Positions 17,498 to 36,069 are shown, counted from the first letter of the stretch. The stretch is 64,000 bases of DNA from Candidatus Omnitrophota bacterium (GCA_035292445.1 DATDQB010000009.1:5632-69631); one strand, 5' to 3'. The notes: generated by a model not told the origin, from the sequence alone. Numbers and translations are program-made.

Positions 17498-17579
17498 AAA
17501 TAACTCCCGTCATTTTTCCACATTTCCTTTTTAGAGGAAATGACGAGGCTCGCCCCGACTTTATGTCGGGGCGGCCTTG
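17498..17579. repeat. Two-hairpin intergenic element, copy B1; it exactly fills the gap between the response-regulator stop and the mipA start.
   Basis: Sequence ctcccgtcatttttccacatttcctttttagaggaaatgacgaggctcgccccgactttatgtcggggcggcctt. Hairpin 1 is catttcc/ggaaatg and hairpin 2 is gccccgac/gtcggggc. Confidence 0.7.
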
Positions 17580-17948
17580 TTATTTTTTGGTTAATAATTT
17601 TTCGATTTTCTCCAGAAGCAATTTCGAATCCACCGGTTTAGGGACATACTCGATATTGACCTTCTGGCTGATTTTTTCATCCAGTTCCTGCTCCCGTTTT
17701 GTCAACAGCACAATAGGCAATTTCTTGAAATCGTCGTTGAACCGCAGCTGGTAACACACATCGTATCCGTTGATCTCCGGCATCATGATGTCCAACACGA
17801 CCAGATCCGGGTCCTGCGTCTTGATCTTCACCAAAGCATCCAATCCGTCAACGGCAGAAAAGGTACCATAGCCTTTGGACTTTAGGACCGTTTCAACCAA
17901 CTTAATGGTCGAAACATCATCATCCACAACAAGAATTTTCTGGCTCAT
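17580..17948 (-). CDS. Single-domain response regulator (CheY-like receiver).
   Basis: VVDDD ... VVLDIMMPEING ... KP are the canonical receiver motifs. Confidence 0.85.
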   Translation of the reverse strand: MSQKILVVDDDVSTIKLVETVLKSKGYGTFSAVDGLDALVKIKTQDPDLVVLDIMMPEINGYDVCYQLRFNDDFKKLPIVLLTKREQELDEKISQKVNIEYVPKPVDSKLLLEKIEKLLTKK

Positions 17949-17976
17949 AATATTTATAGAGATATTATTAATCGTT

Positions 17977-18006
17977 ATTATAAAGGGCTGCCAAAAGGGC
18001 TGTCAA
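17977..18006 (-). promoter_or_regulatory. Candidate sigma70 promoter (TTGACA-N18-TATAAT) for the response regulator at 17580-17948.
   Basis: The minus strand reads TTGACAgcccttttggcagcccttTATAAT about 30 nt upstream of the ATG. Confidence 0.4.
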
Positions 18007-18061
18007 AGGAAGAATGGATTTTCTGACGTATTTATCCCAAAACAAGGTATGGCCATTACGG

Positions 18062-18379
18062 TCAAGCGCTTTTCTTCTCCAGAATTTCCATCTCAAGCCC
18101 GCCGGTCCATCCAACGACCAAATTAAAAAAGAACGCGGTCAAAAGCCCGCTCACCGCCCCGATCAAGGCGTAGACGATCGGAAAAATGATAATGGCGGCA
18201 AAACCGACGGACTGGAGTTGGGCCGCCTCCCCGGTTGCCTCAATGCCCAAGGCTTTCATGAGGGACACGAAAAGCCCCATTAACAGCCCGAACAAACCGT
18301 ACAAGACAGCCATGATTTTCGCCAACGATACAATGCCGAGCCGCTTTATTTGTACAAGCATTCCGCTCCCCCCGTTCAT
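18062..18379 (-). CDS. Small membrane protein (105 aa, about 3 TM helices); function unknown.
   Basis: Hydrophobic ORF. Its ATG lies inside repeat copy B2. Confidence 0.4.
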   Translation of the reverse strand: MNGGSGMLVQIKRLGIVSLAKIMAVLYGLFGLLMGLFVSLMKALGIEATGEAAQLQSVGFAAIIIFPIVYALIGAVSGLLTAFFFNLVVGWTGGLEMEILEKKSA

Positions 18380-18442
18380 TTTTCTTCATTTCCATTTTCA
18401 GGAAATGAACGAGGCTCGCCCCGCCAAAAGCGGGGCGGCCTT
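18370..18442. repeat. Two-hairpin intergenic element, copy B2.
   Basis: Sequence cccgttcatttttcttcatttccattttcaggaaatgaacgaggctcgccccgccaaaagcggggcggcctt. The stop codon of the SpoU gene and the start codon of the small TM gene both fall inside it. Confidence 0.7.
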
Positions 18443-33720: not shown

Positions 33721-33738
33721 AATAGGGTGGTGAAAAAG

Positions 33739-34407
33739 TTATCGCCTGCGATCCGTTAACCGGCGACCAAGGTTAATGCCGCCGATCTTGCGGCGCCTTT
33801 TATTGACGATGATGCGTGCCAGCTTGGAGCGTTTACGGATAATTTGCACTTTGCCGTACCCTGTGATCAATTTCGACGCCTCCAACAGGTCCCTGACAAT
33901 ATAATCCGGCTCAACGTCATCCCATCGGCGCATATACAAAACGTCTTCACGGCCGGACAAGACAAAAATAGTCTTACAGTCGATATTTTTCCCGGTTTGA
34001 ATATCCACCTCGGTATCACCGACAAAATAAGCCTTACGGGCACTGCGCATATTGGCGTTCAACAGCTGCATCGCTTTCTTAATGGAACCGACGGCGGGTT
34101 TACGCATCGTGCAGCCTTCATCGCGGCGGCGGATCGAATAAAAAACTTTTTTGATCCGCCCTCCTGCCTTACGGACTCCCCGAAGCATTTTTCTGGTAAT
34201 TTGGTCCAATTTTTTCTTGGTAAAAAGTCCTTTGCCGACACCGGCCTGATTGGAAACGACAAATATCGTATAACCGGCCCGCGTCAAATTTCTGATGGCC
34301 TCCAAAGCCCCCGGAATAAAATAAAAATCCCTGCAAGTCGTCACGTAGCGGCCGTTGCCGGGAAATTCATTAATAACGCCATCTCTGTCAAGAAACACGA
34401 TTTTCAC
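33739..34407 (-). CDS. gmhB: D-glycero-D-manno-heptose 1,7-bisphosphate 7-phosphatase (HAD family), carrying an Arg-rich ~40-aa C-terminal tail.
   Basis: HAD motif I is FLDRDGVIN, with SNQ and GD.E.D motifs also present. The tail RKRSKLARIIVNKRRRKIGGINLGRRLTDRRR is atypical for GmhB. Confidence 0.7.
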   Translation of the reverse strand: MKIVFLDRDGVINEFPGNGRYVTTCRDFYFIPGALEAIRNLTRAGYTIFVVSNQAGVGKGLFTKKKLDQITRKMLRGVRKAGGRIKKVFYSIRRRDEGCTMRKPAVGSIKKAMQLLNANMRSARKAYFVGDTEVDIQTGKNIDCKTIFVLSGREDVLYMRRWDDVEPDYIVRDLLEASKLITGYGKVQIIRKRSKLARIIVNKRRRKIGGINLGRRLTDRRR

Positions 34408-34427
34408 TTCTTAATTACCTCAAATCG

Positions 34428-35198
34428 TTAGAATTTTTTGATAATTTTTTCCCATCGGGAACCGTGAATAAAAAAATAATTCCTGCTTCCTTGGAAATGA
34501 CCTATCCCCTTAAGATTTCCATCCTCAAAGACAGCCAGCTTATAACCTTTGCTGAAAAAAAAATCTTCCAAATCTTTTACGCTTTGCCCGTAACGGTTCA
34601 AACTTTTCTCATCCACTTCGCTCATGACAACCGGCTTATCTCTTTCGATGACACCCACTCCTCCCTGATAAGCCAGAAGCTCCGCCCCCTCGATGTCGCA
34701 CTTAATAAAGTCCACCCTTTTGATATTCTCTTGAGAACAAAATACGTCTATGGTCGTCATGGAAACAACTTCACATAAAGCGTCGGAATTTTCTTTTTCG
34801 TCTATGTAAGCAAGGGATGGGCCGACTTTCCCGGATCTTTTGATCGGCGAAAAAAGTTTAATTTGTTTTTCCTTGTCCGATAGAGCTTTTTTCGTAACAA
34901 TAACATTATTTAACCCGTAAAATTTCTTAATGGCCGTCAAAACCCTGTAACTGTAACGGCCGGGCTCAAAACTATAAACCCGGCCCGCCCTCCCGACAAT
35001 CCTGGATAAAGGCAAGGCGTATCGGCCATAGGCGGCCCCGATATCAAGACAAATGCTGCCAGGATCTACGATCTTGTCCAATATCATCACCTCCGGCTCA
35101 AACTTGACATTCTTAGAATTGCGTAGAATCGTTTTGACCGTCGTAGAAAAGACGCTCAAATAATCCTGATACAGCCTGCTGTGAAGAAAATTTCCCAT
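34428..35198 (-). CDS. FkbM-family methyltransferase.
   Basis: Motif CLDIGAAYGRYAL, with FkbM-like length and context. Confidence 0.6.
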   Translation of the reverse strand: MGNFLHSRLYQDYLSVFSTTVKTILRNSKNVKFEPEVMILDKIVDPGSICLDIGAAYGRYALPLSRIVGRAGRVYSFEPGRYSYRVLTAIKKFYGLNNVIVTKKALSDKEKQIKLFSPIKRSGKVGPSLAYIDEKENSDALCEVVSMTTIDVFCSQENIKRVDFIKCDIEGAELLAYQGGVGVIERDKPVVMSEVDEKSLNRYGQSVKDLEDFFFSKGYKLAVFEDGNLKGIGHFQGSRNYFFIHGSRWEKIIKKF

Positions 35199-35989
35199 TA
35201 TTTATCCTTGGGAAGATAAATCCCTCTATCTTTGATCTCACAGTATTTGCTGTAGGCGGCAAACTCATAAAACCCGCTCAACGCGGCGGCCACAAATCCG
35301 TAATAACCGTCCTTATAACCTTTTTTGCGGACAAAACGGCGGAAGAAACGGTCAACGGTCCTGCGCATGGCCCTGGCCCGGCTCATTTTCCGCCCGTCCA
35401 AATACCACTTAACCGCTTCAAGGGTCGAATGATTGTTGACCTTGCGGATAAAATCCTCGATGTTCGCATAGTTATAATGGATCAGGCTCTCTTTCAGATT
35501 TCTTCCTTTTGTCCCCGGCGCCAATTTAATCCCCGGATGGACGACGTCATACGCCGCCTCGCTCCATTGAACAAAATTCTTATTGTATAAACGAATATGG
35601 GGGTTGGACCAGCCGCCGTATTTCAAACGGACGTTTCCCAAATAGCATATCTGCGGGATCCAAAAGGCAACGACGTTCTCGGGCGGATTAGATAAAGTCG
35701 CGGCAATCTCCTGTTTTAGCTCAGGGGTCGGGCGCTCATCGCAATCGAGCATCATCACCCAGTCGTTCTTGGCCTTGGAGACGCCAAAATTCCTCTGGCG
35801 GCCCTCCAGATCCATTTTACGGGTAAATACCTTGTCCGTGAAAGCGCGCGCCAGCTTGAGCGTCTGATCGCTGCTTCCGTCATCAATAATAACAACTTCA
35901 TCGGCCCAACCGTGAACGCTTTCAATGCACTCTTTGATATTAAGCTCCTCATTCTTGGCAAGGATAATGATGCTCAAAGGGATGCTCAT
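35198..35989 (-). CDS. Glycosyltransferase family 2.
   Basis: Motif SIIILAKNEELNIKECIESV ... DDGSSD ... DCDE, which is the GT-A fold DxD arrangement. Confidence 0.8.
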   Translation of the reverse strand: MSIPLSIIILAKNEELNIKECIESVHGWADEVVIIDDGSSDQTLKLARAFTDKVFTRKMDLEGRQRNFGVSKAKNDWVMMLDCDERPTPELKQEIAATLSNPPENVVAFWIPQICYLGNVRLKYGGWSNPHIRLYNKNFVQWSEAAYDVVHPGIKLAPGTKGRNLKESLIHYNYANIEDFIRKVNNHSTLEAVKWYLDGRKMSRARAMRRTVDRFFRRFVRKKGYKDGYYGFVAAALSGFYEFAAYSKYCEIKDRGIYLPKDK

Positions 35990-36069
35990 GAATCTCTCCC
36001 GTTCATTTTTCTCATTTCCTTTTTAAAAGGAAATGAACGAGGCTCGTCCCGACATATGTCGGGACGGCC
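35990..36069. repeat. Two-hairpin intergenic element, copy B3; it exactly fills the gap between the O-antigen ligase stop and the GT2 start.
   Basis: Sequence aatctctcccgttcatttttctcatttcctttttaaaaggaaatgaacgaggctcgtcccgacatatgtcgggacggcctt. Hairpin 2 shows compensatory changes (gTcccgac/gtcgggAc) relative to copy B1. Confidence 0.7.

Follow-up and report, generated by a model that had tools for sequence, protein, structure and literature searches.

The 64,000-nt stretch of Candidatus Omnitrophota DNA analysed here (GCA_035292445.1, DATDQB010000009.1:5632-69631; hereafter the window) contains three copies, B1, B2 and B3, of a two-hairpin element of 67–69 nt, all on the minus (gene-sense) strand and each directly upstream of a Shine-Dalgarno (SD) motif. 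These copies very probably represent a mobile DNA element inserted at the SD and not a conserved regulon. The element has exact and reproducible boundaries, is found only at SD motifs and in a single orientation, and the SD and ATG that follow it are derived from the target. Pairs of filled and empty sites with exact boundaries indicate that the element is mobile DNA, subject to insertion or precise excision at AA^GG(G)AG (^ marks the junction). It is apparently undescribed: literature searches returned nothing on Omnitrophota repeats of this kind or on repeats homing to SD motifs. An initial annotation, made from the sequence of the window, had presented the three copies as either an insertion family or a shared regulatory leader.

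Filled and empty sites

A homologue search with the SpoU methyltransferase open reading frame (ORF) upstream of B2 (192 aa) returned a 99%-identical protein of 177 aa, the orthologues being 172–186 aa long. The 177-aa SpoU is encoded by contig L155 (ENA ERZ27254795), in which only 13 nt separate spoU from the next gene. Over 8.5 kb, L155 and window positions 14375-22976 are 99.96% identical. They differ at three places in all, namely by one single-nucleotide polymorphism (SNP), by the length of a T-run (one T) and by a 67-nt indel corresponding exactly to B2 (GGCCGCCCCGCTTTTGGCGGGGCGAGCCTCGTTCATTTCCTGAAAATGGAAATGAAGAAAAATGAAC), whose boundary is ambiguous by GG. The empty site reads GTGAA^GGGGGGAGCGGAATG. 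Since it contains both the ribosome-binding site and the ATG, these pre-exist B2 and are supplied by the target; the initial annotation, which had the element supply the downstream SD and ATG, was mistaken on this point. Its proposal that an element-free orthologous spoU would discriminate between the readings proved useful, as L155 lacks exactly the 67 nt and the comparison favours insertion. The B2-filled allele is present in four independent assemblies (L163-L166), and B2 is thus no assembly error. SpoU orthologue contigs P0006 and P0027 were dropped as synteny controls for B1 and B2, because gene order is not conserved there.

Further pairs were sought by comparing all downstream proteins with all fetched DNA. 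Two pairs come from related species and have the same boundaries: L048 (filled) and L119 (empty), with downstream proteins 92% identical and the empty site AATAAA^GGAGCAGGAAGTG, and L132 (filled) and L127 (empty), with 97% protein identity and the empty site AAAAAAAGGAGTCAG...ATG. Each of four more distant orthologue pairs also has one element-free member. In three of them this member is a gene of the window (the orthologues of genes filled in L141, L143 and L082), and the fourth pair is L005 versus L124. Beyond the 2-nt GG ambiguity, no target duplication is seen in the L155/window pair, nor in L048/L119 and L132/L127.

The T-run that distinguishes the two alleles lies 12 nt upstream of B2. 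It has six residues (T6) in L155, the only empty allele, and seven (T7) in the window, L163, L164 and L166; L165 begins inside the element, short of the run. With T6, spoU stops at a TGA directly before AGG; with T7, it reads through into B2, gains 15 codons and ends at a TGA in the loop of the second hairpin (18398-18400), giving 192 instead of 177 aa. Two changes thus combine to produce the SpoU tail, the insertion of B2 and the T7 run, the latter shifting the original TGA out of frame. The initial annotation had attributed the last ~20 codons and the stop of spoU to the element; the tail is real and amounts to 15 codons and the stop, but the T-run difference is needed as well. The change in T-run length, linked as it is to the insertion state, could be an insertion footprint or independent slippage. 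At 15 other loci the upstream stop codon also lies inside the element, with C-terminal extensions similar to that of SpoU.

Empty sites might also arise by loss from an old, immobile, vertically inherited repeat, through secondary slippage between short G-rich repeats at the junctions. The GG microhomology at both junctions and the T6/T7 homopolymer change beside B2 would fit such losses. Against them, 2 nt of microhomology is far too short for recurrent exact deletion in three independent lineages, different species carry copies before different genes, and genome-specific variants are common to paralogous copies, which requires duplication to new sites. We consider an immobile repeat very improbable.

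The copies in the window and the extent of the family

B1, B2 and B3 align end to end with the same block order. Alignment, folding and a covariance model confirm three full-length two-hairpin copies where the initial annotation had placed them. The model, built from 41 family members, scores B1 at 93.1, B3 at 78 and B2 at 74.6 bits and, with filters off, finds nothing else above 20 bits in the window. The three copies are far beyond a chance match. Each folds into two hairpins on either strand (z = -3.7 to -7.7). The compensatory changes in the GC-rich hairpin are as originally described: GCCCCGAC/GUCGGGGC, GUCCCGAC/GUCGGGAC and GCCCCGC/GCGGGGC. In the sense strand, the layout is (stop codon) AA-GGCCG(Y)C...G(R)CG-A-GCC-UCG(U)U-CAUUUCC-loop-GGAAAUG-(A/U)(G)GAAAAAUGA(A)C-GGGAG-N4-6-AUG, comprising a first hairpin (P1), a linker, a second hairpin (P2), a tail and the flanking SD and start codon. 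The features of the three loci, all on the minus strand, are as follows.

17509-17576, minus: B1 mobile unit proper, 68 nt, between the response-regulator gene and mipA
17547-17576, minus: B1 P1 hairpin, conserved base GGCCG...CG-A-GCC with bulged A
17543-17546, minus: B1 linker UCGU
17521-17542, minus: B1 P2 hairpin CAUUUCC/GGAAAUG
17509-17520, minus: B1 tail UGGAAAAAUGAC
17580-17582, minus: stop codon of the response-regulator gene; B1 begins 3 nt past it
17495-17508, minus: block directly 3' of B1, with GGGAG (17504-17508), a 6-nt spacer and the mipA ATG (17495-17497)
~18446-18452, minus: T-run, 12 nt 5' of B2; filled alleles, including that of the window, have T7 and the empty one T6
18374-18440, minus: B2 mobile unit proper (67 nt, with a GG ambiguity at the boundary), flanked by spoU and the gene of a 99-aa membrane protein
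18413-18440, minus: B2 P1 hairpin
18408-18412, minus: B2 linker UCGUU
18387-18407, minus: B2 P2 hairpin, whose loop contains the TGA (18398-18400) ending the extended SpoU frame
18374-18386, minus: B2 tail AAGAAAAAUGAAC
18366-18373, minus: ribosome-binding site GGGGGGAG; CGGA separates it from the start codon of the gene of the 99-aa membrane protein (ATG, 18359-18361), and all three are the same in the empty allele
36070-36072, minus: TAA of the O-antigen-ligase-like gene upstream of B3, abutted directly by B3
36001-36069, minus: B3 mobile unit proper (69 nt), upstream of the gene for the GT2 glycosyltransferase
36041-36069, minus: B3 P1 hairpin
36036-36040, minus: B3 linker
36013-36035, minus: B3 P2 hairpin
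36001-36012, minus: B3 tail AGAAAAAUGAAC
35987-36000, minus: block directly 3' of B3, with GGGAG (35996-36000), a 6-nt spacer and the GT2 ATG (35987-35989)

All neighbouring genes are on the minus strand. The GGGAG, the spacer and the ATG, which the initial annotation included in the element, lie outside it. By analogy with the B2 empty site, the GGGAG, spacer and ATG next to B1 are probably target-derived too. B1 is also present in the near-identical contigs L155, L095, L163 and L165, and B3 in three other assemblies (L160-L162). A perfect sigma-70 consensus promoter is located on the minus strand at 17977-18006 (TTGACA, 18-nt spacer, TATAAT; 12/12 matches), upstream of the response-regulator gene (17580-17948), which places B1 inside its own short response-regulator–mipA transcription unit. 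A population SNP at the B2 locus of L164 (1440-1470, Ga0209640_10087295) changes GGCGGGG to GGCTGGG in the 3' arm of P1 and breaks one pair of B2; individual copies thus accumulate unpaired changes. No unoccupied AAGGGAG is left on the gene strand of the window. The sequence AAGGGGGAG at ~10487-10495 (minus strand), 7 nt before the ATG of ORF 9821-10480, resembles an unoccupied target of the element.

The extent of the family was determined with two scans. In the first, one genome per GTDB species was searched with an exact pattern that included neither the flanks nor the 3' tail. It yielded 41 loci, 38 of them true copies, in 16 metagenome-assembled genomes (MAGs) labelled Candidatus Omnitrophota, apart from two of the 16 that bear a Planctomycetales label; each MAG carries 1–6 copies matching the exact pattern. 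The remaining three matches, in other phyla, are due to chance, and the covariance model fails to recognise them. The second scan covered metagenomes, with the AT-rich hairpin left free, and gave at least 113 loci, those among the matches listed being mostly from groundwater, sediment and soil and including the window's own B1 locus (L095). After de-duplication, at least 114 distinct copies of 54–116 nt (median 69) were obtained; counts out of 113 or 114 below refer to distinct copies among the matches listed. Essentially all copies listed are found in Candidatus Omnitrophota MAGs and groundwater or soil metagenomes, and the viral contigs scanned contain none. The covariance model recovered only the seed copies in 0.3 Mb of genome loci and three extra, more divergent copies in 100 metagenome loci (0.55 Mb); in 0.82 Mb of loci, L120:4596, L046:2794 and L116:13703 are its only additions to the exact-pattern matches. 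The copy number of the element is low.

Sequence variants are specific to genomes. All six copies in GWA2_47_8 have an extra base at both of the positions X (in the linker) and X' (in the tail), five being U/A and one G/A. Several copies in RIFCSPHIGHO2_01_FULL_52_10, ahead of unrelated genes, have one long P1 in common, and the genome of the window has two subtypes, the extra pair being U/A in B2 and B3 and missing from B1. Such genome-specific variants argue for copy-and-paste spread and are not explicable by vertical inheritance of independent regulatory sites.

The position of the copies relative to genes is uniform. All are in sense orientation, with GGG directly 3' in 114/114 and GGGAG in 109, and the start codon mostly follows 5–7 nt after GGGAN. 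At the other end, 111/114 copies start with GG, preceded by A at -1 in 98/113 and at -2 in 96/113 (85–87%). All 38 true matches of the first scan are likewise followed by GGGA and the start of an ORF and, as the pattern contained neither flanks nor tail, the SD/start-codon regularity is no search artefact. In a GC-skew analysis aimed at a replication-strand (lagging-strand) bias, the element-sense strand is G-rich in 64 of 70 loci; since it also carries 72% of the long-ORF bases, gene orientation confounds this figure. About 60% of the copies with sufficient upstream sequence are intercistronic, the upstream stop lying 0–9 nt before the element in 24 and inside it in 15; for the others, no co-directional gene ends there. 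Downstream genes are unrelated to each other and encode IF3, acyl carrier protein, TatA, thioredoxin, Hsp20, Cu/Zn superoxide dismutase (SodC), MraY, V-ATPase subunit K, isocitrate dehydrogenase, an ABC ATPase, response regulators, Phd antitoxin, MipA, GT2 glycosyltransferase and small membrane proteins. Downstream of the copy ahead of infC (L005:2409-2500) come GGGAGG, 8 nt and AUU, in line with the usual non-canonical start of IF3, so that the element also precedes an autoregulated essential gene.

Structure of the element and the leader-RNA alternative

P1 is GC-rich, with an invariant base composed of GGC/GCC, a bulged A and CG/CG (GGCCG...CG-A-GCC). Its interior, 7–61 nt long, differs in 112/114 copies and still pairs, the median folding energy being -16.7 kcal/mol versus -8.9 with a shuffled interior. 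The linker UCG(X)U joins P1 to P2, and the tail reads GAAAAAUGA(X')C. P2 is AT-rich and usually CAUUUCC/GGAAAUG; in several lineages, an unrelated GC-rich hairpin is found instead, for example UCCCGCCA...UGGCGGGA. On a model-guided alignment of 94 copies, 93.6% of the cells are paired and 13 of 17 pairs change on both sides; none of 500 shuffles reaches the observed pairing, and slid controls collapse. A third complementarity connects the linker CUCG(X)UCAUUU with AAAUGA(X')CGGG at the 3' junction. Here X and X' are absent together in ~80 copies, U/A in 23, C/G in four and G/A in one, and among the copies listed none has a base at X or X' alone. The GCC-UCG(X)U block is complementary both to the element's own 5' end (GGC) and to its 3' end with the first G residues of the SD. 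Because the linker directly follows the 3' strand of P1, a folded single strand would put both ends of the element and the first flanking G residues side by side on one stacked helix. Terminal inverted repeats were not found, the termini GGCCG(Y)C... and ...AUGA(X')C sharing at most a 5-nt imperfect match (CCGYC/GACGG). The motif CG(X)TCATTTCC is present once in forward and twice in reverse orientation.

Some relatives depart from this plan. In L142 (minus strand, ~7560) and L116:13703-13774, P1 is followed by a simple helix with an A-rich loop replacing P2 (CUCGC...GCGGG and CGCC...GGCG), directly before GGAG and the start codon. These short forms may be ancestral or degenerate members of the family. 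At L120:4596-4676, the linker and P2 are separated by an extra GC-rich hairpin (CCCGCCUUGCCGAGCAAGGCGAGG), which looks like a second small palindrome inserted into the element. The palindrome CGCCAAA(U)UUU...AAAUUUGGCG recurs inside P1 of many copies and the similar CCGCCAAGA...UGGCGG replaces P2 in others (e.g. L004, L009, L034, L062, L068, L069 and L092), which suggests a shared hairpin module able to occupy either position.

The initial annotation took the compensatory changes as an argument for selection on structure, either as RNA or as a DNA cruciform. The covariation is real, but it is no proof of selection on RNA: compensatory changes can arise at the DNA level, through the requirement of movement for a hairpin or cruciform or through palindrome-templated correction, and no asymmetry between the strands is apparent. 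The stability of the hairpins is the same for either strand, P1 having 43 predicted G-U pairs in sense and 43 in antisense, and folding energies do not differ between strands (Wilcoxon p=0.70 for P1 and p=0.48 for the whole element). In partition-function calculations, the GGGAG is unpaired with a probability of 0.42 with the element, 0.41 after its in-silico deletion and 0.37 with a shuffled element, and the predicted anti-SD pairing has a mean probability of 0.16. According to these predictions, the element appears to fold on itself and to leave the SD as before, as is expected of an insertion that survives ahead of essential genes.

These results bear directly on the view, also raised in the initial annotation, that the element is a shared cis-regulatory 5' untranslated region (UTR), such as a ligand-binding leader. 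In this scenario, the copies would be a conserved leader RNA (riboswitch, RNA thermometer or protein-binding 5' UTR) whose linker CCUCG(X)U serves as an anti-SD alternating with A(X')CGGG, so as to switch a regulon. The scenario would account for the invariable sense orientation directly 5' of the SD and start codon, and for the complementarity of the linker to the tail and the GGG of the SD, which includes a U-G wobble, corresponding to a C-A mismatch on the complementary strand. The co-variation of X and X', the helix ending at GGAG that the P2-less variants L142 and L116 keep, and the stress-related function of some downstream genes (Hsp20, thioredoxin, SodC) point the same way. It is difficult to reconcile, however, with presence and absence between 99.96%-identical strains, with the patchy distribution among orthologues, with the lack of a functional theme among the downstream genes and with genome-specific variants implying copy-and-paste spread. 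Equal numbers of G-U pairs and equal stability on the two strands provide no RNA-specific signal, and anti-SD pairing is predicted to be rare, with SD accessibility unchanged by the element. A search of Rfam 15 gave no family match in the window at gathering thresholds and nothing near threshold at E<=5; the initial annotation had not recognised a known riboswitch either. Taken together, we judge a regulatory leader to be quite improbable. Hammerhead or other ribozymes, sigma-54 or extracytoplasmic function (ECF) promoters and a CsrA site were discarded from the sequence, the defining motifs being missing.

Relation to known mobile elements and candidate enzymes

The mobile element resembles several known systems in part. 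Members of the IS607 family, which encode a serine TnpA, have no terminal inverted repeats and cause no target-site duplication, and their ends carry short repeated motifs (PMC6188088). The Omnitrophota element likewise lacks terminal inverted repeats and target-site duplication and has a repeated subterminal motif; its GG start (111/114), the GG(G) after it (114/114), the ambiguity of the B2 pair by exactly GG and the scar-free insertion are further similarities. It differs in being ~70 nt long and non-coding and in its confinement to AA^GG(G)AG before start codons, whereas the target preference of IS607 is GG only. The tolerance of P1 for interiors of 7–61 nt argues for a folded strand over a duplex site.

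Elements of the IS200/IS605 family (IS608, ISDra2) have subterminal hairpins, and a guide 5' of the hairpin base pairs with the cleavage site (PMC5934647). With these and with their miniature derivatives (PATEs), the element shares the absence of inverted repeats and of duplication, seamless excision that reseals the donor and orientation-specific insertion by a short sequence. The geometry of the right end, where CUCG(X)U, P2, ~10 nt and A(X')C^GG follow one another and X covaries with X', would suit such a guide. In contrast to this family, P1 and P2 are unrelated in sequence, P1 starts at base 1, leaving no room for a left guide, and the guide-like pairing is not confined to the element but crosses the junction. 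In sense orientation, the conserved GGGAG is found 3' of the element, the left flank being only AA (85–87%); for GGGAG to serve as left flank, the antisense strand would have to be the active one, and the guide would then be on the wrong side of the hairpin.

The initial suggestion of a MITE/REP-like insertion family stands as far as a small mobile element is concerned, but this is no classical MITE or REP/BIME, given the missing terminal inverted repeats, duplication and GTAG. With classical MITEs, the element shares its short length (54–116 nt), non-coding nature, multiple copies and three filled/empty pairs; unlike them, it has no terminal inverted repeats and no target duplication of fixed length (TA or other). 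With REP/BIME sequences (mobilised by RAYT), Correia elements and RUP, it has in common that it is small, non-autonomous, hairpin-forming, dispersed and polymorphic in presence and absence. A REP/BIME-type palindrome mobilised by RAYT, or a classical MITE derived from a DDE transposon, would explain these traits together with the intergenic location. Yet inverted repeats longer than ~5 nt, target duplications and a conserved GTAG head are absent, and there is one orientation, one copy per site and no inverted pair. The copy number is low (1–6 per MAG), the SD target is strict, and an approximate query found no RAYT-like match in 1.05 Mb. Either origin is thus extremely improbable. Mycobacterial interspersed repetitive units (MIRUs) and ERIC sequences are short repeats located between operon genes in the orientation of the genes; they abut or overlap stop and start codons and are tolerated because the neighbours stay expressed. 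MIRUs are often tandem, with small coupled ORFs, and ERICs are longer imperfect palindromes found in both orientations. To our knowledge, no SD insertion specificity has been described for MIRUs, and the likeness of the element to both is restricted to toleration between genes. An attC site was also considered, in view of the bulged A and variable interior of P1, and rejected: RYYYAAC/GTTRRRY cores are missing, and the empty allele keeps the gene order, no cassette having moved. Overall, the element behaves as a non-autonomous transposable repeat that shares substrate features with both IS607 and IS200/IS605 and fully meets neither.

These features can be combined into a tentative mechanism. 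The element very probably inserts in a single orientation into the SD motif, an asymmetric target, between the A-rich tract and the GG(G)AG core, 5–7 nt before the start codon, and the SD and start codon stay intact directly 3' of it. In the single strand, the linker would pair with the last bases of the tail and the first flanking G residues (X with X'), placing both junctions together. The enzyme responsible for movement, acting in trans, would be a transposase or recombinase that can do without terminal inverted repeats and target duplication, the candidates being a serine transposase of the IS607 type acting at the GG core, a single-strand transposase of the IS200/IS605 type (Y1/HUH) or an enzyme of the IS110 type. 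Enzymes of the latter type, with a 2-nt core, are possible mobilisers of the element as well. Confidence in the assignment to any particular enzyme is low. The element would persist because it folds on itself and leaves downstream translation initiation essentially unaffected; C-terminal extension of upstream genes with a stop at or beyond the insertion point, such as spoU at B2, would be a side effect. It is possible, though unlikely, that the target is chosen by nucleic-acid base pairing, with a folded strand aligning both junctions and GGGAG on one coaxial helix. If so, this would be a minimal guide-carrying element of ~70 nt homing to ribosome-binding sites, possibly retargetable via its guide, and its mobilisation would involve an enzyme class or mechanism so far undescribed for substrates of this kind.

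Several observations weigh against insertion at the SD as outlined here. The net gain of G residues is two in B2 versus three in both cross-species pairs, unless further mutation is assumed, and the cut position and target (AAGGGAG versus AAGGAG) are uncertain by 1 nt. The B2 polymorphism is compatible with insertion or with precise excision. The near-invariant body and the complementarity between linker and SD could also reflect an mRNA function, and the exact-match patterns used for collecting copies account for part of the apparent invariance of the body. As to the enzyme, tblastn with approximate queries against 1.05 Mb of Omnitrophota loci, a tiny sample in which a negative does not amount to absence, detected no serine recombinase (IS1535 TnpA and resolvase queries) and no autonomous partner or transposase with matching ends. 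It detected one IS200-like Y1 TnpA (L059:1152-1580, E=2e-20), on a contig with two copies of the element; its ends share with the element only A-rich matches of 10–12 nt and are not convincingly similar.

When single left or right halves of the element were sought by regex, chance matches and two short P2-less variants were the only results. The IS200-like element of L059 (1020-1690; Y1 TnpA of 142 aa) is located at the 5' end of a bioH-like gene, and an imperfect 45-nt copy of the start of this gene is present on both sides of it, which is unusual for the IS200 family. This duplication may reflect transfer together with flanking DNA or an assembly chimera.

Although mobile repeats that are small and non-autonomous are well known, no description was found of one that inserts SD-specifically and spares the translation signals. 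If confirmed, the Omnitrophota element would be a selfish element that uses the most widespread short motif before bacterial genes as a safe landing site. It would explain 'conserved structured 5' UTRs' of Omnitrophota that could be mistaken for riboswitches, and would offer a natural marker for variation between strains of these uncultured bacteria. It could also lead to a scar-free, site-specific system by which short cargo is inserted immediately before a start codon. More generally, the case is cautionary: strong hairpin covariation and a fixed distance to the start codon are insufficient alone to infer a regulatory RNA.

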